From a virus (taxonomy: Duplodnaviria > Heunggongvirae > Uroviricota > Caudoviricetes): a stretch of 9,560 bases of DNA. A program made the position numbers and the translations under genes. A model generated the notes under the pieces. That model searched no databases, had not been told where the DNA came from, and was given only the letters and a program-made list of their open reading frames with translations. Below are positions 1-9,560 of the stretch, in pieces (position 1 is the stretch's first letter; the number at the start of each line of letters is the position of its first letter). The stretch lies in IMG/VR virus record IMGVR_UViG_2529292985_000013, positions 1 to 9,560 of that record. One strand, written 5' to 3'.

Positions 1-2
1 TA

Positions 3-344
3 TTAGCCTGGGCGCTGGTGGAGCTGGTAAAGCGTCTGCCATATATCATTGAGTTGAACACCGGGCATGAAACTATCGTTATAGCCCATGCCGACTATCC
101 AGGTGGAGAGTACCAGTTCGGTAAGGATGTGTCGCTTTTTGATGTTGTCTGGTCGCGCAGTCGCGTCGGTGATTCGATAGATGGCATTGGTGGAGAAATC
201 ACAGGCGCAGATCGCTTTATCTTTGGGCACACACCGGTACGAAGACCAAAAGCATACTGGAATCAGCACTACATAGACACGGGCGCGGTTTTTTGCGGAA
301 ATCTGACGCTAATGCAGGTGAAGGGAGGGCAGCTTAAAGTCTGA
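3..344 (+). CDS. Ser/Thr protein phosphatase (PPP / calcineurin-like metallophosphatase), C-terminal part; 5' end lies upstream of the window
   Basis: Frame is open from the window edge to the stop at 342-344. Translation contains C-terminal metallophosphatase motifs (FIFGHTPV, YIDTGAVFCGNL) typical of lambda-type PPP phosphatases. P1 encodes such a phosphatase (ppp), but identity was not verified. Confidence 0.8.
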   Translation, partial: LAWALVELVKRLPYIIELNTGHETIVIAHADYPGGEYQFGKDVSLFDVVWSRSRVGDSIDGIGGEITGADRFIFGHTPVRRPKAYWNQHYIDTGAVFCGNLTLMQVKGGQLKV

Positions 345-369
345 TCAAATCATTTACGCACTCAAAATG

Positions 370-399
370 TGTTAGAACATTGATTTTAGTTTTCTAACA
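370..399. promoter_or_regulatory. Palindrome TGTTAGAA-N14-TTCTAACA in the ppp / next-gene intergenic region, overlapping -35-like TTGATT (380-385)
   Basis: Perfect 8-bp inverted arms at 370-377 and 392-399 read directly from the sequence. An 8-bp inverted repeat with a short spacer is expected about 3 times by chance in 9.5 kb, so only its position in a promoter-like AT-rich spacer supports an operator role. Confidence 0.25.
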
Positions 400-441
400 T
401 ATTATTTTACCGCTCGGAACAAAACAGAGTCGGTATACATT

Positions 442-1437
442 ATGAGTGCAATAATCACACCTCATTTCGTAAACGGAGCTGGTGTGGCTGTCTTTCCGGT
501 AGACAAGCCCACCAGCAACTACATTGGCGCAGGTCGCCGTTTCATTATCTCTCCACTTCCGCGCGAACAGGCTGAAAACACGCCAGATGGCGTAGTGGAT
601 CTGAACTATTCGCTGGTTGCCAACCAGTCTCTGAAAGCATTTTTTCAAAGCGAGCGCGTATTTAACGCATTAGGCGGTGAAGATTCGCTTGTTCATTGGG
701 TAAGTTCCAATATCCACGATTGCCAGGCGCACGATAAGCGCGATTGCAGCCACCAGCTAACCACTCATTTCTATAACGGCTCTGCCGTTCGCCTGTGCTG
801 GAAGCATGATGCGGAATACATGATGAAGGGGTACAGCAAGCTGGACGACCAGTTATCCCTGAATCGTGCCAACTGGGTTATGAACTGGGCTGCGAGCGAG
901 TTAAAACTACCGCCAGAACGCGATCTGAGTATGGTTGAACTCACTTTTTGGGCCATTCGCCGGAATCTGAAAGATGAGCTGCCAGATGAAGCCGGTCGCA
1001 TTGCATTTTGTCAGCCAAAAACTGAAATCCCTACCGGTACGCTGAAAGAATCAGATATCACCTGGGAGCACAGTACCCGCGAGCTGGTGGACATAACCGC
1101 AGAGCAGATCGTCAACCTGTCTGTAGATGAGGATTCCGGCCTGCTTTATATGCGCCGACCAAAAGCGGTCCTCGGTAAAAGCCCGGCTTATCTCCGGTTT
1201 GTGGTGTCTCGCCCGTGTGTAGGCTGCGGCGGCAAGGTTAATCACCCATTCATGTACCGCGCTCGCTCGTTAAACGAACACGACCGCTGGGCTGTTCCTC
1301 TTTGCGATGACTGCGCCAGAAGCGCAGAAAACGATGTCCGGGCATGGGAAAAAGCACATGGCATCCGCCTTTACGTAGCCGCTAACCAGCTTTTCGACTT
1401 CGCCATTGAGCGCGGAGTGATCACGTTCAATAACTGA
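442..1437 (+). CDS. Hypothetical phage protein, 331 aa, with C-terminal Cys/His-rich HNH-like zinc-finger motif
   Basis: ATG start, long uninterrupted ORF. C-terminal segment CVGCGG..NHP..NEHD..CDDC has two CxxC pairs flanking His/Asn residues as in HNH-type nuclease folds. Possible DUF968-like prophage protein (recalled, unverified). Confidence 0.75.
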   Translation: MSAIITPHFVNGAGVAVFPVDKPTSNYIGAGRRFIISPLPREQAENTPDGVVDLNYSLVANQSLKAFFQSERVFNALGGEDSLVHWVSSNIHDCQAHDKRDCSHQLTTHFYNGSAVRLCWKHDAEYMMKGYSKLDDQLSLNRANWVMNWAASELKLPPERDLSMVELTFWAIRRNLKDELPDEAGRIAFCQPKTEIPTGTLKESDITWEHSTRELVDITAEQIVNLSVDEDSGLLYMRRPKAVLGKSPAYLRFVVSRPCVGCGGKVNHPFMYRARSLNEHDRWAVPLCDDCARSAENDVRAWEKAHGIRLYVAANQLFDFAIERGVITFNN

Positions 1438-1450
1438 TGGAAACAACGCA

Positions 1451-1750
1451 ATGAGTCAAGGTAACGGTGACGGAGCTGCAAAGTGCAGAATCTCCACTTG
1501 TTTGATTAATGACAGAAAAATAGAACCGTGTGCGGCGCTGGCACAATCTCTGGAGCAGGATGCTGAATACACGACGCGAAAAGGTCTGCTGAAATACAAA
1601 ATCTATAACCATGAATTAATTCATTCACAAGAACTGATCATGCTTCGGTCAGGCGAGTTTTCTAAATCGCCGATTCGGGTTTCATTTTGCCCGTTCTGTG
1701 GTGAAAGTCTGAAAACGTGGAAAGCGGAGGCAACCAGTGAGCAAGATTGA
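1451..1750 (+). CDS. Small hypothetical protein, 99 aa, possible zinc-ribbon (C-x5-C near N-term, CPFC near C-term)
   Basis: ATG-initiated ORF 13 nt after the upstream stop. Its 3' end overlaps the next gene's GTG start by 14 nt (coupling). Confidence 0.55.
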   Translation: MSQGNGDGAAKCRISTCLINDRKIEPCAALAQSLEQDAEYTTRKGLLKYKIYNHELIHSQELIMLRSGEFSKSPIRVSFCPFCGESLKTWKAEATSEQD

Positions 1751-2384
1751 TTATCAAAAGCTTCGTGAAATCGCTGAAAAAACAAAAATTGCTGGTGAAG
1801 CACCTGTAATGCCTTTCGATCAGCGAATTAATGCGCTTAACGATTTTATGAAGCACTTTTCGCCAGATATCGCGCTGGCATTGTTGGATGAACGGGAAAG
1901 AAACCTGCAATACATCAAAAGCCGCGATCAGGAGAACGAGGATATTGCGCTAACGGTAGGGAAGCTGCGTGTTGAGCTGGAAGGCAAAGACAGCAAAATA
2001 GCCAATCTTACCGCCGAACGCGATGCTCTTCGTGAAGGTGAGATGGGCGACGCTAGGCATAGCAACACACGGGCCGCAGCTGATATCTACTTCCAACTGG
2101 TCGAGGAGTGCGAAATTCCTGCTGGCGGATCTCTGGTCGAGTACGTTGACGATATGCGCGAGAAGCTGGAAGCCGCAGAGAAGCGCATAGCAGAGTTAGA
2201 AAGTGATTCTCAGGCACAAAAGTTAGTTGAAGCAATCATTGTTGCGATAGAAAACGAACAGGAACGTCTTTTTGATGAAGATTACCTAATGGATTCGAAA
2301 GAATGCATTGACGTAATTCGTGAAGAAGTAAAGCGATGGAATGATTCCCGCACCGCTGGCATTCGCATCAAAGGAGGTGAGTAA
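1737..2384 (+). CDS. Hypothetical charged, coiled-coil-like phage protein, 215 aa
   Basis: GTG start overlapping the upstream ORF. Highly charged E/K/R/L-rich sequence with heptad-like stretches. Stop TAA 2382-2384 overlaps the ATG of the next small ORF. Confidence 0.7.
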   Translation: MSKIDYQKLREIAEKTKIAGEAPVMPFDQRINALNDFMKHFSPDIALALLDERERNLQYIKSRDQENEDIALTVGKLRVELEGKDSKIANLTAERDALREGEMGDARHSNTRAAADIYFQLVEECEIPAGGSLVEYVDDMREKLEAAEKRIAELESDSQAQKLVEAIIVAIENEQERLFDEDYLMDSKECIDVIREEVKRWNDSRTAGIRIKGGE

Positions 2385-2560
2385 TGCGTGTGGCATGTAT
2401 CGGCTTGTTACCGTACCCGACTCGCTTTTGGGCTTCTGCGCTAATTGCAAAGCCACATGTCCTGATGGCTGACAACATCATCCCGGCACCAAAGCGCCGC
2501 CATACCGGTATTGCATCGGCACGACGAGCAGCAAAGAGACGCAGGAGAGCAAAACGATGA
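2384..2560 (+). CDS. Small basic protein, 58 aa, not in the supplied ORF track (below its apparent length cutoff)
   Basis: ATG at 2384 overlaps the upstream stop (TAATG). Strong SD GGAGG at 2373-2377, 6 nt upstream. Hand translation MRVACIGLLPYPTRFWASALIAKPHVLMADNIIPAPKRRHTGIASARRAAKRRRRAKR; stop TGA 2558-2560 overlaps the next ATG (ATGA). Confidence 0.4.
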   Translation: MRVACIGLLPYPTRFWASALIAKPHVLMADNIIPAPKRRHTGIASARRAAKRRRRAKR

Positions 2561-2745
2561 AAAACCGTAAAGCAAAGATTCTGTTAGTTCGTAGAAACGC
2601 TCCTGGCGTCTGGCAGTGGGTGAGACTCAGCAACCGCCGGATGGGGTTAATGAAACATTACGGGATGATGGATTGTGGTTTTTGCAAAAAGCCCAGCGCG
2701 GCGCAAAACCGCTGGAAAAACCACTTGCGTACTAAAGGAGAGTGA
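2557..2745 (+). CDS. Small basic hypothetical protein, 62 aa
   Basis: ATG overlapping the upstream stop (ATGA), SD-like GGAGA upstream. Stop is 1 nt before the next ATG. Confidence 0.45.
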   Translation: MKNRKAKILLVRRNAPGVWQWVRLSNRRMGLMKHYGMMDCGFCKKPSAAQNRWKNHLRTKGE

Positions 2746-2746
2746 T

Positions 2747-2956
2747 ATGGCTATCGCTGCAAGTTACACCATGCATCTCTATTGTGACTGCCGTCAGTGC
2801 ACGGAAGGTGTATATCCAGTGCCAGACTTCGGTGAGTATATAGGTACGTCATGGGCTGGCTGTGCAAAAGAGGCGCGCAAGGATGGCTGGCGAATAAGCA
2901 AAGACAAAACGCGTGCTTTTGCGCCCGGGCATAAAGTTTTGAGGGTTAACAAATGA
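2747..2956 (+). CDS. Small Cys-rich hypothetical protein, 69 aa (C-x-C-x2-C ... C), possible zinc-binding
   Basis: ATG at 2747 preceded by strong SD AAGGAG (2735-2740). The longer track ORF from 2675 lacks an RBS, so the internal start is preferred. Stop overlaps the next ATG (ATGA). Confidence 0.55.
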   Translation: MAIAASYTMHLYCDCRQCTEGVYPVPDFGEYIGTSWAGCAKEARKDGWRISKDKTRAFAPGHKVLRVNK

Positions 2957-3783
2957 CCACTATAACCAAAGAGCGACTACTGACAATCAAGCAGTGGCGC
3001 GAAACATACGGACCTGGTAGCAACGTTGTACTGCCAGCAGAAGAAGCGGAAGAACTGGCGCGGATTGCGCTGACATCGCTGGAAGCAGAGCCTATTGGTG
3101 AAGTTTCAGAGAAGCAACATGGCCTTGTTATGGATGGGACGGTAGACCTTGGCGGGAAATCAACTTATCGCATCATTAAGGGAGAAAAAGCGATGAAGTT
3201 GTTGCCGTTGGGGACGAAGTTTTATACCGCACCGCCAGCGCCGATAACGCCGGAGGCCATTGAAAACGCAATTGAATACATCCGCAGTATCGCTTTTCAC
3301 ATCGATGAAGACGATTACCACGGCAAACATATTGCGTATTTCATGCGACAAGCATTGGCCTGGCTGGAAGGGCATTCATGCAGCGACGACAGACAGGGTA
3401 AAGCCGAGAATCAACCAGTACGCGGCAACCAGACTGCCGAATCCAATCGCGGTAATGAGTGGACCGGCAATCCTGATATTGATAACGCAATCATCATGCT
3501 CGACCGCATAGATACGCTGGAAAATTGCGATGATGACCGTATTGAGGCTGTTAAGGCCGTTTTGCGTAGACTGGCTGGCAACCATCCGGATTTTCCGGAT
3601 AGTTCCCAACAATCGCCCAAGAAAAGCGTAAAAACCACTCTGGAAAGAGGCTATCTTGAGGCCGCATTAAAGATTAAGCCGGGCCATACGCTAGGCGTCA
3701 TTGATGCCATGTTGGTTCATGAAATGGCGAAGGCTTTATTGCCGCTGGTGGCTGATAAAATTCCGAATAAGGCCGATATCTGA
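2953..3783 (+). CDS. Hypothetical phage protein, 276 aa
   Basis: ATG start coupled to the upstream gene; long ORF with protein-like composition. Followed immediately by a strong intrinsic terminator. Confidence 0.7.
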   Translation: MTTITKERLLTIKQWRETYGPGSNVVLPAEEAEELARIALTSLEAEPIGEVSEKQHGLVMDGTVDLGGKSTYRIIKGEKAMKLLPLGTKFYTAPPAPITPEAIENAIEYIRSIAFHIDEDDYHGKHIAYFMRQALAWLEGHSCSDDRQGKAENQPVRGNQTAESNRGNEWTGNPDIDNAIIMLDRIDTLENCDDDRIEAVKAVLRRLAGNHPDFPDSSQQSPKKSVKTTLERGYLEAALKIKPGHTLGVIDAMLVHEMAKALLPLVADKIPNKADI

Positions 3784-3793
3784 TCACCATGCT

Positions 3794-3824
3794 AAAATCC
3801 CCTCAATTCACAGAGGGGATTTTT
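3794..3824 (+). terminator. Rho-independent terminator
   Basis: Perfect 11-bp stem AAAATCCCCTC (3794-3804) / GAGGGGATTTT (3813-3823), 8-nt loop, T-run to 3824. Lies 11 nt after the stop of the 276-aa gene. The stem's 3' arm doubles as the SD for the lipoprotein gene. Confidence 0.8.
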
Positions 3825-3828
3825 GTAT

Positions 3829-4095
3829 ATGTTGCATAGAGTTTTATGGAAAAGCGTTATTGTCGGCGCGATCTTGGCTATGTCTGGGTGTGCAATGGTG
3901 CAATACAACGACGGTGAAAAGGTAAGCATCCAGTCAGATGGCTGGTATGGGCTGGATAGTCTGCAAAAAACCGCAGATAAAGCCTGTCAGCAATATGGGA
4001 AGTCTAAAGCCGTATATCAGCATAGCGCGAACGCTAATCCCCATCTCGCGCCCGGTACGGGCGTTCAGAACACCATTTGGAAATGCGAACCATAA
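3829..4095 (+). CDS. Small secreted lipoprotein, 88-aa precursor
   Basis: ATG at 3829 (track ORF begins at an upstream TTG) with SD GAGGGGA 8 nt upstream. N-terminus MLHRVLWKSVIVGAILAMSGC has a positive n-region, hydrophobic core and lipobox-like LAMSG-C (signal peptidase II site). Mature part has 3 further Cys. Confidence 0.7.
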   Translation: MLHRVLWKSVIVGAILAMSGCAMVQYNDGEKVSIQSDGWYGLDSLQKTADKACQQYGKSKAVYQHSANANPHLAPGTGVQNTIWKCEP

Positions 4096-4134
4096 TGCTG
4101 GTGGCATCTTTGTTACAAAGAGGAACACCTGCTC

Positions 4135-4485
4135 TCAATGCAGGGGATGAGATTTAACGAAATCGATCACCCTATCCTGAACTTCAGAAAGAAGGTCTTT
4201 TTCATGCGCCAGGACGTCAGGATATTGACGTTCTGGCCTTACCAGATGCCGGAGCTTCCCATTAAGCAGAATGGCCTCAGAAAACACTTTTACGCTGTGC
4301 TTTATCCCCTCTGTTTCACTTTTCAGCGTCAAAATAAAGCGCAATTGCTTATTAGCCTGATTCGGATTCAATACACGAATTTGCAGTTCGTCTATGCTGT
4401 TTCGCAATGGGATTGATGCCACCACACTGGTGCTGTCTCTGATTGTCTGAATTGAACGGCTAACATTGAGAACGTTATTGTGCAT
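4135..4485 (-). CDS. Hypothetical protein, 116 aa, opposite strand to the surrounding gene block
   Basis: ATG-initiated ORF with purine-rich first codon positions. The overlapping + strand ORF (4138..4416) translates to an F/Y/Q-rich shadow-like sequence. Weak RBS (AGG only 3 nt from ATG) and rare codons (AGA, AGG, ATA, CGA) keep confidence low. Confidence 0.4.
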   Translation of the reverse strand: MHNNVLNVSRSIQTIRDSTSVVASIPLRNSIDELQIRVLNPNQANKQLRFILTLKSETEGIKHSVKVFSEAILLNGKLRHLVRPERQYPDVLAHEKDLLSEVQDRVIDFVKSHPLH

Positions 4486-4517
4486 GTGCCTGATCCACTA
4501 ACTCCTGGAGGTTTCTT

Positions 4518-4769
4518 GTGTCAGATCGAAATATAGCAGCTAAAAGCCAGGAAGAGCGAGACAAGGTGAACGTAGACCTTGCCGCCAGCGGCGTTGCTTA
4601 CAAAGAACGGCTGAATATACCTGTGATTGCAGAGCAGGTGGCCCGTGAGCAACCGGAAAACCTGCGCGCCTATTTCATGGAACGGCTACGGCACTACCGG
4701 CAGTTAAGCCTCCAGTTGCCAAAAGGGAGCGATCCGGTGTATCAGAACGAGGATGCACCAAAAAAATAA
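4518..4769 (+). CDS. hot: Homologue of DNA polymerase III theta subunit (HolE-like; P1 Hot-like)
   Basis: GTG start with SD GGAGG 7 nt upstream. The segment [43 protein letters not shown] closely parallels E. coli HolE ([43 protein letters not shown], recalled). Confidence 0.85.
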
Positions 4770-4854
4770 CGGCAAGATGGGGGAGAAATGTGATTAGCCC
4801 CCAGCGTTGCGCGCCTACAAATCCCGCTTTCACAAACTATGCCTTTTCAATGTA

Positions 4855-4874
4855 TACTGTATAAATAAACAGTA
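4855..4874 (+). promoter_or_regulatory. LexA (SOS) box overlapping a sigma70-like promoter for the humD-like gene
   Basis: TACTGTATAAATAAACAGTA is a perfect CTGT-N8-ACAG SOS box, nearly identical to the E. coli umuDC operator (recalled). It overlaps -10 TATACT (4853-4858); -35-like TTCACA at 4829-4834 (18-nt spacer); 18 nt upstream of the ATG at 4893. Confidence 0.85.
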
Positions 4875-4892
4875 TCATTGAGGTAAAACGCT

Positions 4893-5282
4893 ATGGGCTT
4901 CCCTTCTCCTGCGGCGGATTATGTTGAAAGCCGAATTTCTCTTGATCAGCAACTAATCAGGCATCCATCAGCAACCTACTTCATGCGGGCAGCTGATAGC
5001 CATCACCGTGAGGGAATATTGCAGGGTGCTTTGCTGGTGGTTGATTCCTCGCTTACTCCGGTTGATGGTTCTCTGCTTGTGTGCGCTATGGAGGGTGAAT
5101 ATCGCATAAAGAGATACAGGAAGTATCCGCGCCAGCACCTGGAGGATTTAAGCACCGGGAGGAAAGAGGCGTTACCAGTGGATGACGATGGATGCACGGG
5201 GAGTAATGCTGTTTTTGGTGTGATCACTCATGTCATCAATGATGTCCGAAGTGGGGAATTTGACGATTGTCCGGTGATTTAA
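4893..5282 (+). CDS. humD: UmuD' mimic: S24 peptidase-family UmuD homologue lacking the N-terminal arm (P1 HumD-like)
   Basis: Protein begins MGFPSPAADYVE, matching E. coli UmuD from Gly25 (first residue of processed UmuD'). An in-frame TAA at 4884-4886 precludes a longer N-terminus. Ser (ADSH) and Lys (RIKR) of the UmuD dyad are retained. Confidence 0.9.
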   Translation: MGFPSPAADYVESRISLDQQLIRHPSATYFMRAADSHHREGILQGALLVVDSSLTPVDGSLLVCAMEGEYRIKRYRKYPRQHLEDLSTGRKEALPVDDDGCTGSNAVFGVITHVINDVRSGEFDDCPVI

Positions 5283-5317
5283 GCTGCAAAGTGCTGGTGC
5301 TTTATACCTGTGAAGTT

Positions 5318-5346
5318 TATAGTTGTGTACACATAACGAGTACACG
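5318..5346 (+). promoter_or_regulatory. phd-doc promoter/operator region with tandem palindromic sites
   Basis: Perfect palindrome TGTGTACACA (5324-5333) and imperfect CGAGTACACG (5337-5346), 13 bp centre to centre, next to -10-like TATAGT (5318-5323), just upstream of the phd SD. Consistent with Phd/Doc autoregulation of P1 phd-doc (recalled). Confidence 0.6.
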
Positions 5347-5354
5347 AGGTGTTT

Positions 5355-5576
5355 ATGCAATCCATTAACTTCCGTACCGCGCGCGGCAACCTTTCTGAAG
5401 TGCTCAACAATGTTGAAGCCGGGGAAGAGGTTGAAATCACCCGCAGAGGCCGAGAGCCAGCAGTAATTGTCAGCAAGGCTACTTTTGAAGCCTACAAAAA
5501 AGCGGCGCTGGATGCTGAATTTGCATCCCTGTTTGACACCCTGGACTCCACCAACAAGGAACTGGTTAACCGATAA
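5355..5576 (+). CDS. phd: Phd/YefM-family antitoxin (prevent-host-death)
   Basis: ATG at 5355 with SD GAGG 6 nt upstream (track ORF starts at an upstream GTG). The 73-aa product [56 protein letters not shown]... matches P1 Phd as I recall it. Stop TAA overlaps the doc ATG (TAATG). Confidence 0.9.
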
Positions 5577-5956
5577 TGAGGCATATATCACCGGAAGAAC
5601 TTATTGCGCTTCATGATGCGAATATAAGCCGCTACGGCGGCCTGCCGGGAATGTCAGATCCGGGTAGGGCAGAGGCCATTATCGGGAGAGTTCAGGCCAG
5701 AGTTGCCTACGAAGAGATCACCGACCTTTTCGAAGTCTCCGCCACCTACCTGGTAGCTACGGCGAGAGGGCATATATTCAATGATGCCAATAAGCGTACC
5801 GCGCTAAACAGTGCGCTGCTATTTCTACGCCGTAACGGCATACAGGTATATGATTCTCCCGTGCTGGTGGAACTTGCGGTGGGGGCCGCAACTGGTGAAA
5901 TCCCCGTATCTTCAGTAGCGGAAAAACTACGTGAATTATTTGGTTCCAATATTTGA
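5576..5956 (+). CDS. doc: Doc toxin (Fic-fold kinase, death-on-curing)
   Basis: 126 aa coupled to phd. Contains the Doc-type Fic motif [11 protein letters not shown] (HxFx[DN][AG]NKR). Length and sequence match P1 Doc as recalled. Confidence 0.9.
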
Positions 5957-5960
5957 AAAG

Positions 5961-5984
5961 AAGCCCGCTCAACCAGGCGGGCTT
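5961..5984. terminator. Hairpin between convergent transcription units (doc on +, leftward operon on -), probably bidirectional
   Basis: GC-rich 8-bp stem AAGCCCGC (5961-5968) / GCGGGCTT (5977-5984), 8-nt loop. On the - strand it is followed by CTTTTC (better U-tract); on the + strand a T-run appears only further downstream. Confidence 0.55.
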
Positions 5985-6039
5985 CCTACTATCACTCAAT
6001 GATTTTTTCTGCTGTCAGCCAGCTAATTCGGTGATGTTT

Positions 6040-6840
6040 TTAGGCGTCAGCATCCTCCGCTACCTCTGCTTCAACATCAGCCACGGCTTCATCGGACGGT
6101 TCTTCTTTGGCCTGCTCTGCAATCGCCGCACGGCATTTGGCCCTTGCTGTGGCGATTGCTTCAGCACGCACATCATCAGGAATCATTGACGTGATATACA
6201 TATCCAGTTCTTCGGCGCGGAACACTGTTTGGTCCAGATATTCGCGTAGCATCCAGGTAAATTCGAAATCACACGCGATAATCTCTGCGCTACCTTCTGC
6301 ACCATTTGGGAAATGAATAAAAGCCTGTTTAGCCAAACCGATAACACGACATGCGGTTGCCAAAACAGCGGCAACCAGGTTTACATTTTCACACGCTACG
6401 GGCTGATTAACGCCGGAGATTACTCCATTTAACTGTCGGTTATATGGAAGGTAGTTTGAGATGCGTTCTACGCGCCATGTGCCAGTCAGGCTGCCATTCT
6501 TAAAGATAATTGGTGTAACGGATAGCCCAAGCTCGCGTATAAGTCGTTGCGCTATAGCAGGATCATTAAACATGTCTAATGCTACACATTCGAAAGACTG
6601 TGCAAGGGTAAACAGTTCTTCCAGAGAGTAGTCTTTGCCCCTGGCGGTGATGTAACGATGAACGCCGCTTTCTGCATCACTCCATATAGCTACGCCATGC
6701 TCTTCATTCAGCTCTTCATTAAAGCCGAGATACGTCATGATAGTACGTTCAATCGTGTCAAACGGCAGTGACATGTCGGCGTTAACAGCCACCAGCAGGC
6801 CATTACGCAAGCGGTATTGAATTGCTTTAGTATTTTCCAC
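6040..6840 (-). CDS. Hypothetical protein, 266 aa, with strongly acidic Ala/Glu/Asp-rich C-terminal tail
   Basis: Long ORF with GTG start at 6840, 6 nt after the upstream stop, SD-like GGAG 9 nt upstream. No recognisable catalytic motif (no P-loop, no HxH). C-terminal ~40 aa are low-complexity acidic (EEPSDEAVADVEAEVAEDADA). Confidence 0.7.
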   Translation of the reverse strand: MENTKAIQYRLRNGLLVAVNADMSLPFDTIERTIMTYLGFNEELNEEHGVAIWSDAESGVHRYITARGKDYSLEELFTLAQSFECVALDMFNDPAIAQRLIRELGLSVTPIIFKNGSLTGTWRVERISNYLPYNRQLNGVISGVNQPVACENVNLVAAVLATACRVIGLAKQAFIHFPNGAEGSAEIIACDFEFTWMLREYLDQTVFRAEELDMYITSMIPDDVRAEAIATARAKCRAAIAEQAKEEPSDEAVADVEAEVAEDADA

Positions 6841-6846
6841 GTTAAA

Positions 6847-7509
6847 TCACTCCACTACAAACCAGTCACATGCCAGCAAGTCGCCTACAGAAGGCAACCA
6901 CGGAACAACTACACCTTGTGCATTTTTTAAGGCGAAATAAGCACCATACGGAACGAGATCGCCGGGGAAATATCCCTTAATGGCTTCCATTCGTGCCGGG
7001 TACTGTCCTTCAGGAACCAGCCAGCAGAATTGGTTTTCGCCGTTCCACCCGCGCCGGGCAACTTTCTTGCCATCCTTCAGCCACATCAGCGCGTCAGAAA
7101 AGTCGGCTGCTTCAAGGTCGATTTCTTCTTGTAGAGTAGCGATACCGCCAGCAGAAATAGTTACGTCCCTGGCTGTAATGAATGTCACCCCATTGTGACC
7201 TTCAATGCTGAGCGATACCCCATTTTCGGAGGCGTCGTTAACCCGGCTATAGCATTTTTCAAATGCTTTCTCTGGCACATAGACCAGATAGCCATTTTCA
7301 GCAGTGACGAGATATCCTCCTATTTGCGGTCGGAATTTTTCCAAGAACACACCATCAACACGAAGCGTCATTCCTTTTGGCTCAACGACTTCGATACTGC
7401 CAAAAATGGGCGCATAAGCTTTGCCGACAATAACAATATCTTTGATTTTCGATGCCCGAATGATGCTGTGGCATTTGTATTTGGGGAACACCTGAAAAGT
7501 GCTGACCAT
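6847..7509 (-). CDS. Two-domain protein, 220 aa: N-terminal ~135-aa domain of unknown function fused to a C-terminal DUF2829/Tad2-like domain
   Basis: ATG with SD AGGAAGG upstream. The C-terminal ~85 aa (FSDALMWLKDGKKVARRGWNGENQFCWLVPEG...VVVPWLPSVGDLLACDWFVVE) fit my recollection of the DUF2829 pattern (ALxxLKxGKKVxRxGWNG ... WxPSxxDLLAxDW), the family of Thoeris anti-defence Tad2. Confidence 0.75.
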   Translation of the reverse strand: MVSTFQVFPKYKCHSIIRASKIKDIVIVGKAYAPIFGSIEVVEPKGMTLRVDGVFLEKFRPQIGGYLVTAENGYLVYVPEKAFEKCYSRVNDASENGVSLSIEGHNGVTFITARDVTISAGGIATLQEEIDLEAADFSDALMWLKDGKKVARRGWNGENQFCWLVPEGQYPARMEAIKGYFPGDLVPYGAYFALKNAQGVVVPWLPSVGDLLACDWFVVE

Positions 7510-7523
7510 AATCCTTCCTCTAC

Positions 7524-8018
7524 TTAAAACTTTGCGTACTGAAGCGGTGTACGCTTGATTTCAACGCGGTCTTCCGATGTGCTACCAAAGCCACCAGCGC
7601 CTCGCTCTGTTTCATCGAGTTCATCAACTTCTACCAGCGATACCGGTTCAACACGCTCAAAAATGCCTTGCATGACCGCCATTCCTGGCTTGAGGCAAAC
7701 GCCTTCACCACCGGGATCTGTAATCAGTTTTGCCATGATTTCACCGCGATAATCGGAGTCGATAATTCCTACGCAGTTAGCCAGGCGAGTATGTTTTTTG
7801 CAGCCCAATCCGGAACGCGGATAGAGTTTCAGACACCAGCCGGGCGGGATCTCCATAGCCAGTCCGGTGTACACCCACCAGCTTGAGGAAATTGCACCAT
7901 TGCTATCGACACATGGTTTTATTTCAACAGCCTCAAAATCCATCGCCGCCGATCCGGAGGTGGCATAAGCTGGAAGTTTTGCTGCCGGATGTAGGCGTTT
8001 CACTTTTACGTAAATCAT
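7524..8018 (-). CDS. dut: Trimeric dUTPase homologue (deoxyuridine triphosphatase) with divergent motif IV and short C-terminal extension
   Basis: ATG overlaps the upstream stop (ATGA). Motifs: I PAYATSGSAAMDF, II PRSGL, III GIIDSDYRGE, V ERGAGGFGSTS. Motif IV reads GMAVMQ where E. coli Dut has GERIAQ (Arg replaced). About 15 extra residues follow motif V. Confidence 0.85.
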   Translation of the reverse strand: MIYVKVKRLHPAAKLPAYATSGSAAMDFEAVEIKPCVDSNGAISSSWWVYTGLAMEIPPGWCLKLYPRSGLGCKKHTRLANCVGIIDSDYRGEIMAKLITDPGGEGVCLKPGMAVMQGIFERVEPVSLVEVDELDETERGAGGFGSTSEDRVEIKRTPLQYAKF

Positions 8019-8491
8019 TGTTTTTTAGCTCTCTGCGTGAAGGTGTAAACCCGACGTTTGATATGTGGAACGGTAGGAACAGGAATACAGGAACTTTCAA
8101 TAACTCCTTGCTCCTCCAGCGATCGCACCGCCCGCAAGAACTGCGACGTGTCGCCGCCAAACTGGCGGGCATAGGTGCTGCCGTTATGAAGTATTTGAGC
8201 TATTACCCGAGCTTTTGTCTGGCTGTCACGATATGCGAATAGCCGCACGGCCTCTTCTGGCGCAATCGATAACTGATAGCCTTTACCGGCACGGTGTCGA
8301 ATGAATCCATGCGCCAGTAGGTTTTTGAGTTCGTTACGAGTGCGAACAGATCCGTAATCCAGGAAGTGTGGATTGATAACGACTGGCTTAAACCATTCCG
8401 TAGGTGCTTTAGCTAATAGAGCTAACAGCTTCCCGGACAATCCTGGATAGGAAGACGGGTAACAATTCAGAGATGGGTAATAAGTTTTCAC
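8015..8491 (-). CDS. Hypothetical protein, 158 aa, possible winged-helix DNA-binding segments; no internal Met
   Basis: GTG start overlapping the upstream stop (GTGA), preceded by AGGGGG. The protein has no internal Met, so a non-ATG start is obligatory. Segments LLALLAKAPTEW...RTRNELKNLLAHGFIRH and STYARQFGGDTSQFLRAVRSLEEQGVIES look like HTH/winged-helix recognition regions (inference). Confidence 0.6.
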   Translation of the reverse strand: MKTYYPSLNCYPSSYPGLSGKLLALLAKAPTEWFKPVVINPHFLDYGSVRTRNELKNLLAHGFIRHRAGKGYQLSIAPEEAVRLFAYRDSQTKARVIAQILHNGSTYARQFGGDTSQFLRAVRSLEEQGVIESSCIPVPTVPHIKRRVYTFTQRAKKQ

Positions 8492-8844
8492 CGACGCCCC
8501 CTTGCCGGATATCGACCTGCATTAGTATCCGGTGCAATAAAGCCGGTAGTGGGGCGAGTGAAAGCGAGATTAATCTTCTCGACCATAGTGCGATAATTTT
8601 CCTGATAGTGGGCCAGGAGTTTTTCGGCGGCAATGATGGTTACTTTCCGGACGTAGCTTTCTGCTTCCTCCAGATTTCGCCAGTTTTTTTCGAGGGTAAA
8701 CACAGGGACGGCCTCAAGCCCGGTCATGATGCCGAATACAACGACAGCATGACTGTTCTTAACACCAGCGGCGAAGGTTACGGTGTAACCATCCACCGTG
8801 AAGCGTCTTGATTCCGTGATTTGACTCTGCAAAGCACCCTCCAA
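8488..8844 (-). CDS. Small hypothetical protein, ~114-118 aa, first gene of the leftward operon
   Basis: Frame is open only from TTG at 8844 (in-frame stop 6 codons further upstream); no ATG is available. A second TTG at 8832 sits 5 nt after a GGAGGG SD-like sequence and may be the true start. Function unknown. Confidence 0.5.
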   Translation of the reverse strand: MEGALQSQITESRRFTVDGYTVTFAAGVKNSHAVVVFGIMTGLEAVPVFTLEKNWRNLEEAESYVRKVTIIAAEKLLAHYQENYRTMVEKINLAFTRPTTGFIAPDTNAGRYPARGRR

Positions 8845-8905
8845 AATAGGCGAGGGTACTTTACAGCAAAGATATCAATCTAAAAAGATGTGTTAGAAAT
8901 TTAAT

Positions 8906-9560
8906 TTACGAATCCATCAAGCGGCTATTAGCCCCCACAGACACACCGCCACGGCGCAGATACCGCATAAGTGTTTCCGGTTTCTTCCAGGTTCCTTCCT
9001 GCATGATCTCCACCATAGACACCTGCTTTTCAGCCATATCGATAGCGGCCCCGACACGAGCACTATGCCCGGTCCACGTCCGGTATCTCCCTTTGTTTGG
9101 CGCGGCATCCCTTTTATTCAGCAACACCCAGGCGTCGCTGAATATTTTCTCCATTGCAGGTGCAGTAAGGGGCGTTGTCGTAATCCTGGCCTTATTGCTA
9201 CGGTGTATCGGCGGGAACAGCACCGCGTCAGGATGTTCACGAAGCCCGGAAACATCCAGCCAGTCATTCAGCACAGCAGTAGTGCGACGGGAAAGCACCT
9301 TATCAAGCCCGGCGGCGGTCGTTATTGTCTTCGTGTGTGAAATATGTAGCGTGACAGTGTCACCTGTTTGGTCCAGATCTCCTACACGAATACGCGAGAT
9401 TTCCGACATACGCATCAGCGTATTGTATGCAACAAAGAGAAAAGCCCGGTTGCGCTGGTCCACCAGCCGTTCTGACCTGGACAGCAGGACGTCGAGCAGT
9501 TTCAGGTCGTCCCACCGCAACGGTATAGCCTGGCCTGTTCGCTCGCCTTTTTCCGTTGCC
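8906..9560 (-). CDS. Cre-family tyrosine recombinase, C-terminal catalytic part; 5' end beyond the window
   Basis: Frame stays open to the window edge upstream of the track's TTG at 9520. Translation aligns with P1 Cre (recalled) over the catalytic domain: RAFLFVAYNTLMRMSEISRIRV vs RNLAFLGIAYNTLLRIAEIARIRV, GHSARVGAA (His/Arg box), and conserved Trp/Tyr (TWKKPETLMRYLR). Roughly 45-50 percent identity by eye, so it is not P1 Cre itself. Confidence 0.85.
   Translation of the reverse strand, partial: ATEKGERTGQAIPLRWDDLKLLDVLLSRSERLVDQRNRAFLFVAYNTLMRMSEISRIRVGDLDQTGDTVTLHISHTKTITTAAGLDKVLSRRTTAVLNDWLDVSGLREHPDAVLFPPIHRSNKARITTTPLTAPAMEKIFSDAWVLLNKRDAAPNKGRYRTWTGHSARVGAAIDMAEKQVSMVEIMQEGTWKKPETLMRYLRRGGVSVGANSRLMDS

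Follow-up and report, generated by a model that had tools for sequence, protein, structure and literature searches.

The stretch of DNA analysed here (the window) comprises 9,560 nucleotides (nt), positions 1 to 9,560 of the IMG/VR virus record IMGVR_UViG_2529292985_000013 (Caudoviricetes), and the gene of interest is a leftward open reading frame (ORF) of 266 codons in its second half. This gene is a real, functional member of the P1 IsaA family, and isaA was found to be a conserved component of the cre-c8 operon in P1-like phage-plasmids. The gene and its parts lie as follows, with residues numbered in amino acids (aa):

6040..6840, minus strand: isaA-family coding sequence, 266 aa, GTG start, stop codon at 6040-6042 (basis: ORF list, PHROG 2326, and the ratio of nonsynonymous to synonymous substitution rates, dN/dS)
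6121..6585, minus strand: conserved family core (aa 86-240), consisting of an alpha-beta-beta-beta-alpha module like a double-stranded RNA-binding domain (dsRBD), a beta-hairpin and a long C-terminal helix, with invariant L118, W122, G168 and D213
6043..6120, minus strand: coding region of the acidic Ala/Glu/Asp tail (aa 241-266), disordered and allele-variable (basis: composition and shuffling, model confidence, the D6 allele and a table of family tails)
6850..6853, minus strand: GGAG ribosome-binding site, 9 nt before the GTG start and within the last Tad2-like codons (upstream sequence read directly)

A first-pass annotation, made from the sequence alone, had described a 266-aa protein with an acidic Ala/Glu/Asp tail and no recognisable catalytic motif, encoded by the terminal gene of a leftward operon. 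Both the ORF and the composition of the tail were borne out, the compact gene spacing followed by a hairpin past the isaA stop agreed with the operon end, and no match indicating a catalytic motif was obtained (0 matches in Pfam, NCBIfam, PADLOC and PDB sequences).

The window protein matched PHROG 2326 (hmmscan E=7.9e-135, 449 bits), with protein aa 1-257 aligned to profile positions 1-263 of 264. By BLASTP it was 46.6% identical to aa 60-320 of P1 IsaA over 262 aa (E=9e-86) and 47.5% identical to the IsaA of SJ46, with the RCS47 protein at ~47%, and tblastn with the window protein gave matches in all P1-type phages. The closest named relative was the product of orf113 of phage D6 (YP_009914790), which is ~96% identical and annotated as 'similar to P1 gene isaA'; the window gene is the orf113 counterpart. 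The start codon is the same in the D6 annotation, and in SJ46 there is an ATG at the equivalent codon. Over 77% of its 9.56-kb length the window shows 96.7% identity to Escherichia phage D6, and it is a segment of a D6-like member of the P1 phage-plasmid family; for the isaA segment, a 92.6-kb E. coli plasmid gave 100% identity.

In P1, isaA (P1_gp017) is annotated as 'IS1 insertion-associated gene A' with 'unknown protein function', PHROG 2326 is likewise listed as of function unknown, and no functional study of IsaA was found in the literature. P1 isaA was scored nonessential in a genome-wide CRISPR interference screen, being dispensable for plaque formation (PMC10695390), and it lies inside one of eight variable regions of P1-like plasmids (PMC9603915). 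When 1.84 billion representative proteins were searched exhaustively with the family profile, only 40 IsaA representatives came up, most of them stand-alone proteins of 225-313 aa. With tblastn, isaA was detected in 474 PLSDB plasmids; 455 of these, mostly 90-100 kb in size, are non-mobilizable, and all copies were annotated as 'hypothetical protein'. The P1 portal protein was present in 683 plasmids, so that ~70% of the detectable P1-like plasmids carry a recognisable isaA, a figure that is a lower bound as distant IsaA homologs are missed by tblastn. A match was also present in 200 of 5,426 complete E. coli genomes. A locus search of the GTDB representative genomes with one family alignment gave no confirmed relative. 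The window isaA is effectively an allele of a known, uncharacterised family, and the novelty is contextual: its operon position, the links to C8 and to a Tad2-like protein, and the absence of a close solved fold.

The dispensability of isaA for P1 plaques, its location within a variable region of P1-like plasmids and the shifts in tail length between close alleles, which gain or lose DA units, could be taken to mean that the gene is a decaying or functionless passenger, its tail having arisen from drift or from the ORF antisense to it. We give this next to no credence, as it is contradicted by the selection and conservation data. Since dN/dS was 0.11-0.21 at dS up to 1.7, similar to the values for cre, dut and doc, isaA is judged to be a functional gene under purifying selection. 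It is also intact and full-length in hundreds of plasmids, its homologs can be traced to ~20% identity at a fixed operon position, and the AlphaFold2 model of the protein is confident. The antisense ORF (5953..6189 on the plus strand, 78 aa, TTG start) has no counterpart in D6, where the sequence differs, and is probably spurious. Recombination breakpoints were seen within isaA; the gene of locus L038, for example, encodes a protein with 55% identity in residues 1-85 and 82% in residues 86-240.

On the minus strand of the window, isaA is the last of six closely spaced genes, and the other features of this predicted operon are:

5963..5978, minus strand: terminator-like GC-rich hairpin with a T-run, bidirectional with the convergent doc (from a scan; hairpin conserved in D6; ~60 nt past the isaA stop)
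6847..7509, minus strand: Tad2-like (DUF2829) protein, 220 aa, domain at aa 136-219 (Pfam PF11195, E=2.1e-22, 79.9 bits against a cut-off of 25)
7524..8018, minus strand: dUTPase (Pfam PF00692, phrog_135), which directly precedes isaA where the Tad2-like gene is absent (L004, L010, L035, L038)
8015..8491, minus strand: o158, very basic (isoelectric point (pI) 10.0, net +13), phrog_6669 by PHROG scan, with no function annotation
8488..8844, minus strand: P1 C8 homolog, 118 aa (phrog_1968, which the window protein matched with E=7.6e-48 and P1 C8 with E=6.4e-53)
8906..9520, minus strand: Cre/Dre-like tyrosine recombinase (Pfam PF00589), 99% identical to D6 dre

The gaps along cre-like, c8-like, o158, dut, Tad2-like and isaA are +61, -4, -4, +14 and +6 nt. 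In D6 the same strand carries dre (a Cre-like recombinase), orf117, orf116, dut, orf114 (DUF2829) and orf113. No promoter-like site was found in a simple sigma-70 scan of 5800-9560, and the operon promoter is probably located upstream of the recombinase gene, beyond the window. The window C8-like protein shares only 24% pairwise identity with P1 C8, both being in phrog_1968; in P1, c8 is the gene after cre and is annotated as 'establishment of lysogeny, putative'.

This position was conserved well beyond D6. Among the loci of close homologs in IMG/VR, 33 of 35 showed the same order, in which a divergent C1 repressor gene is followed by the genes for the Cre-like recombinase, o118, o158, dUTPase, the Tad2-like protein and IsaA, and then by the terminator and the convergent doc/phd. 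The Tad2-like gene ends 6 nt before isaA in these 33 loci, and in the two loci that lack it (L035 and L038) the dUTPase gene abuts isaA. Eight representatives were then looked up among the 40 as a distant set, with proteins 16-25% identical in the alignment. A Cre-like integrase gene lies upstream of isaA in 8/8 of them, an ORF for a C8-like protein of ~110 aa lies between integrase and isaA, again in 8/8, and a divergent C1 repressor is found beside the integrase on every distant contig long enough to show it. The C8-like gene is present after, or soon after, the Cre-like recombinase gene in every P1-like element examined. The ORFs interposed in the distant loci are variable (0-3), including a dUTPase in L004 and L010, and the operon is reduced to a minimum in L049-L052, where integrase, a ~110-aa ORF and IsaA follow each other and the last two genes overlap by 4 nt. 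The conserved operon position in distant homologs is a new result.

A dUTPase gene recurs in the cre operon of P1-like elements (5338-5988 in L004 and 5517-5999 in L010), and a gene like those for DUF4406/nucleoside 2-deoxyribosyltransferase follows isaA in L006-L009; nucleotide-metabolism genes thus cluster around isaA. The positional counterparts of o158 in the distant elements gave weak MarR_2/winged-helix matches, and o158 is possibly a small DNA-binding regulator in the cre operon.

In P1 and SJ46, isaA is placed differently, just downstream of ssb, and this ssb has an annotated C1-controlled operator. Given the recombinase and C8-like context described above, the operon running from cre and c8 to isaA is the usual home of the gene. 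Its location behind ssb is a derived state of P1 and SJ46, and 'IS1-associated' is a name that reflects no more than how P1 happens to be arranged.

Such a persistent position could mean that IsaA is a backbone accessory of the cre-c8 module with no role against host defence. Together with C8, Cre or Ref it would take part in cyclising the DNA, in resolving dimers or in deciding between lysis and lysogeny; as one example, the acidic IsaA might serve the basic C8-like or o158 proteins as a partner or chaperone, or antagonise them. The triad of cre, c8-like gene and isaA is kept in every distant element examined, and the 4-nt overlap of the last two in L049-L052 points the same way, as do the Ref-type RecA-dependent nuclease encoded after isaA in L005, L010 and L046 and the C1-controlled operator annotated for the ssb that precedes isaA in P1 and SJ46. 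Purifying selection on isaA resembles that on cre, and the charges are complementary: the C-terminus was net-positive in 13/13 C8-family proteins and o158 has a pI of 10, while IsaA is always acidic. However, the charges of IsaA and C8 do not co-vary (Spearman rho=-0.18, p=0.56), P1 and SJ46 have moved isaA to the ssb operon without losing it, so that linkage to cre and c8 is not required, ~30% of P1-type plasmids have no isaA match, and the role of C8 is itself no more than 'putative' in the P1 annotation. We regard a pure cre-c8 accessory role as possible but less likely than not.

The gene directly upstream of isaA in the window suggests a different association. Tad2/DUF2829 proteins sequester the Thoeris signalling molecule gcADPR (bioRxiv 10.1101/2023.05.01.538930), and the window Tad2-like protein is likely to be an anti-Thoeris sponge in an E. 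coli phage-plasmid. Tad2 proteins and IsaA are both small, accessory, non-enzymatic phage proteins, and their genes adjoin in three arrangements, being predicted to share an operon here. IsaA is nevertheless a neighbour and not a member of this family, as it has no PF11195 match, is ~3x the size of SPO1 Tad2 (89 aa) and gives no sign of binding a nucleotide signal. In the first arrangement, that of D6-like elements, the order is dut, Tad2-like gene, isaA. In the second, found in SJ46, it is ssb, Tad2-like gene (J46_0048, 81% identical to the window protein), isaA. In the third, isaA follows the c8-like gene and is itself followed by a 71-aa borderline Tad2-like ORF (6831-7046 in L049 and 6215-6430 in L050), which scored 24.5 bits for PF11195 against the cut-off of 25, matched phrog_1048 and phrog_872, and gave a BLASTP E=4e-5 to the window Tad2-like protein.

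In about 120 E. coli records with an isaA of the P1/SJ46 type, the match to the window gene is confined to its first 43 nt (6798-6840), at ~97% identity, the rest of IsaA being only 47% identical at the protein level. This stretch, with the adjoining 3' end of the Tad2-like gene, marks a recombination junction for the exchange of a Tad2-like cassette between lineages. The first two arrangements are linked by recombination; the third is independent, with a marginal score. Among D6-like elements the Tad2-like gene was the most variable of the operon (146-233 aa, 60-100% identity) and had the highest dN/dS (0.34-0.42), its N-terminal part being variable.

In P1 (L002, NC_005856, 4824-5786), residues 1-65 of the 320-aa IsaA match the N-terminus of SJ46 J46_0048 with 85% identity, and residues 60-320 match IsaA (SJ46 comparison region L003 4149-5783). 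The ORF annotated with 320 aa looks over-extended or fused, with the beginning of a lost Tad2-like gene at its front, and a precise deletion of the Tad2-like ORF seems to have taken place in the P1 lineage. The true P1-type IsaA is probably a protein of 264 aa starting MTAQNTK, as in P0016.

Scans of the window IsaA against Pfam, NCBIfam and PADLOC placed it in no family (Pfam at E<=1), a Pfam scan of 22 IsaA family members gave no match either, and among PDB sequences neither the window protein nor the family profile found a match below E=0.1. An AlphaFold2 model was built on a 14-sequence alignment, with a mean predicted local distance difference test (pLDDT) score of 83 and a predicted template modelling score of 0.76; the model is confident for the body and of low confidence in the tail. 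It begins with a small hairpin at the N-terminus and an alpha-beta-beta-beta-alpha unit at residues 27-82, followed by a second such unit at 94-166 with a low-confidence loop at 138-144. The C-terminal part consists of a beta-hairpin (171-191), short helices, a long helix (222-246) and a low-confidence tail from 251. The ordered, conserved body therefore reaches to about residue 240-250, as the helix at 222-246 is conserved and pLDDT falls below 50 only from 251, instead of ending at the ~225 aa of the earlier description.

In a 22-sequence family-wide alignment only L118, W122, G168 and D213 were invariant, with Y9, G39, G116, A158, L212 and Y215 nearly so. This pattern of conservation is structural, not catalytic. 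We propose that IsaA is a non-enzymatic, acidic, two-lobed alpha/beta protein made of two packed dsRBD-like modules, a long C-terminal helix and a disordered tail. Comparison with the PDB gave no close solved fold, and the architecture of two modules plus helix had no match as a whole. The comparison with 1r7l, an uncharacterised phage protein from Bacillus cereus ATCC 14579, gave twilight-zone scores with ~11% sequence identity, and the title of that entry describes no function.

The dsRBD-like modules could suggest that IsaA binds or processes nucleic acid, either as a tandem dsRBD that binds double-stranded RNA or DNA or as a degenerate nuclease of the PD-(D/E)xK/Hjc-like kind with recombination intermediates as its substrate. 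True dsRBDs have a basic RNA-binding surface, with a basic N-terminus of helix 2. IsaA has no such surface and is acidic; its helices at the corresponding positions read SLEELFTLAQ and LVAAVLATACRV, without the basic RNA-binding feature. The Pfam dsrm profile matched neither IsaA nor the 22 family members scanned, and all members of the family are net acidic. As for the nuclease, the weak matches to Hjc and tRNA endonucleases vanished when the core was used and no catalytic residues were conserved, so this candidate was rejected. Taken together, we consider a role in binding or processing nucleic acid very improbable.

The tail, residues 241-266 (AEQAKEEPSDEAVADVEAEVAEDADA), contains 11 D/E, 8 Ala and 1 Lys and has a net charge of -10. 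Its D/E share is 42%, against 13% for the body (binomial P=2e-4), and its sequence entropy is 2.53 bits, while the minimum for any 26-aa window of the body is 3.15. Just 12 of 20,000 composition-preserving shuffles gave a C-terminus as acidic as that of the window IsaA. The D6-type tail is shorter and different, ending ...AERAKEEQSNDTAAEEVE, and the DNA alignment diverges exactly from that point. No tandem repeat was found in the tail-coding DNA. Across 34 members of the family the tails past the residue aligned to window position 240 were 3 to 83 aa long, at 15 aa or more in 21 and at 3-13 aa in the other 13; their net charge was -4 or lower in 17 members and positive in one only. Ala, Pro, Gln, Glu and Asp abound in the family tails, which are not mutually alignable. 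The body, in contrast, was acidic in 34/34 members (net -3 to -16, median -10). Because the tails vary in length and charge, cannot be aligned and differ between close alleles, a C-terminal extension that is disordered and usually acidic recurs in the family as a tendency and not as a conserved element. This is a warning against inferring function from an acidic tail, which is here the least conserved part of the protein.

It had been speculated in the earlier description that such a tail could belong to a DNA mimic, that is, a protein of the Ocr or ArdA kind in which tail and acidic body imitate DNA to block restriction or DNA-binding defence proteins. The net charge of -10 over 26 aa, the pI of 4.5 of the whole protein, the recurrence of acidic tails in the family, the anti-restriction region hxr-ddrB-ddrA-darA that adjoins isaA in P1 and SJ46, and the presence of another anti-defence-type gene in the operon would all fit. 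Like T7 Ocr and plasmid ArdA, IsaA is acidic, non-enzymatic, borne on a phage or plasmid and expected to act early, and the charge density of its tail is locally DNA-like. Unlike in these proteins, the acidity lies in a disordered, non-conserved tail and not on a rigid fold; the body has a net charge of -10 over 240 aa, the dense charge being confined to the tail with pLDDT <50, which is 3-13 aa long in 13 of 34 members. Neither IsaA nor the 22 family members had a Pfam match to Ocr (PF08684), ArdA (PF07275) or ArdB/KlcA, no PDB sequence match was obtained, and no likeness of fold to known DNA mimics was found. Because the tail is variable and disordered, the body only mildly acidic and similarity to known mimics absent, the mimic idea is weakened and we consider it improbable. 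The earlier interpretation thus stands in part, for the acidic tail, the operon end and the lack of a catalytic motif, and not for the length of the body or the mimicry of DNA.

Two further comparisons bear on the tail. P1 IsaA and D6 orf113 are homologous to the window protein over the whole body, are likewise acidic and ~250-270 aa long, and carry a short acidic tail (...TTEEVESD in P1); the window tail is longer and more acidic than either; their genes differ in position, as isaA is in the cre operon in the window and D6, as in all distant relatives, and after ssb in P1 and SJ46. The C-terminus of single-stranded DNA-binding protein (SSB) has a conserved hydrophobic-acidic tip. IsaA resembles E. 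coli SSB and T7 gp2.5 in having a disordered acidic C-terminus and an association with DNA metabolism, with isaA directly after ssb in P1 and SJ46. Unlike them, it has no oligonucleotide/oligosaccharide-binding fold and no fixed terminal motif (...EDADA, ...EEVESD, ...AAEEVE and many others).

Because IsaA has no catalytic signature, no nucleic-acid-binding character, a constant acidity, dispensability for lytic growth in P1 and an operon shared with the cyclisation recombinase, a putative gene for lysogeny establishment and, in many elements, a sponge of the anti-Thoeris type, a protein-binding accessory factor is the kind of function that fits best. We tentatively propose, giving the proposal rather less than an even chance, that IsaA is a stoichiometric protein-binding factor acting at DNA entry and establishment, most plausibly against host defence. 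It would be produced alongside Cre, C8 and the Tad2-like sponge while incoming phage DNA becomes established as a plasmid, and would act by binding a partner protein stoichiometrically, without catalysis. The target to be neutralised or sequestered in this way would be a basic protein of the host or the phage that probably binds DNA, most plausibly one belonging to host defence. The tail would not be the functional core; it would be an optional electrostatic addition by which the binding is made stronger or broader, or which keeps IsaA soluble. Counter-defence was ranked slightly first because of the adjacency to the Tad2-like gene and the accessory distribution of isaA, and the role as an accessory of cre and c8 next because of the deep synteny and the translational coupling with c8.

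Several points weigh against the counter-defence proposal. The binding partner, the timing of expression and the anti-defence activity rest on inference for IsaA. The deep conservation of position beside cre and c8, at ~20-25% identity, resembles a backbone function and not a patchy anti-defence gene, and the average dN/dS of isaA carries no sign of an arms race, unlike that of its Tad2-like neighbour (0.34-0.42). The adjacency to the Tad2-like gene could simply reflect a convenient insertion slot at the isaA junction. Of the three arrangements, the D6 and SJ46 types are connected by recombination, and the third stands at 24.5 against 25 bits. Finally, the net charge of the body (-10 over 240 aa) is ordinary for a cytoplasmic protein.

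A bolder form of the proposal, which we think unlikely though worth stating, is that IsaA is a new establishment or counter-defence factor of P1-like phage-plasmids, with a fold architecture absent from the PDB, that disables a host DNA-binding defence protein directly, its target range being tuned by the tail. If this were true, phage-plasmids would have in their cre operon what conjugative plasmids have in the anti-defence 'leading region'. P1-like phage-plasmids are widespread in Enterobacteriaceae, with resistance genes among their cargo, and P1 itself serves as a standard tool of the laboratory. The proposal provides a testable hypothesis for a conserved gene and flags the cre operon for establishment and anti-defence functions.

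At the edges of the operon, the listed recombinase ORF (204 aa, TTG start) is an internal-start artefact; the true 5' end lies beyond the window, the D6 ortholog being 342 aa long. From the other side, an intact phd-doc toxin-antitoxin pair (5349-5956, plus strand) and humD, encoding a UmuD'-like protein (4893-5282, plus strand), run towards the isaA operon in convergent orientation, an arrangement also present in P1 and D6. The matching region of D6 carries humD, phd, doc and a pdcA-like gene on that strand. The window lacks this pdcA-like gene, and the shared terminator hairpin comes directly after doc (window 5930-6110, compared with 7350-7640 in the D6 region, L001).

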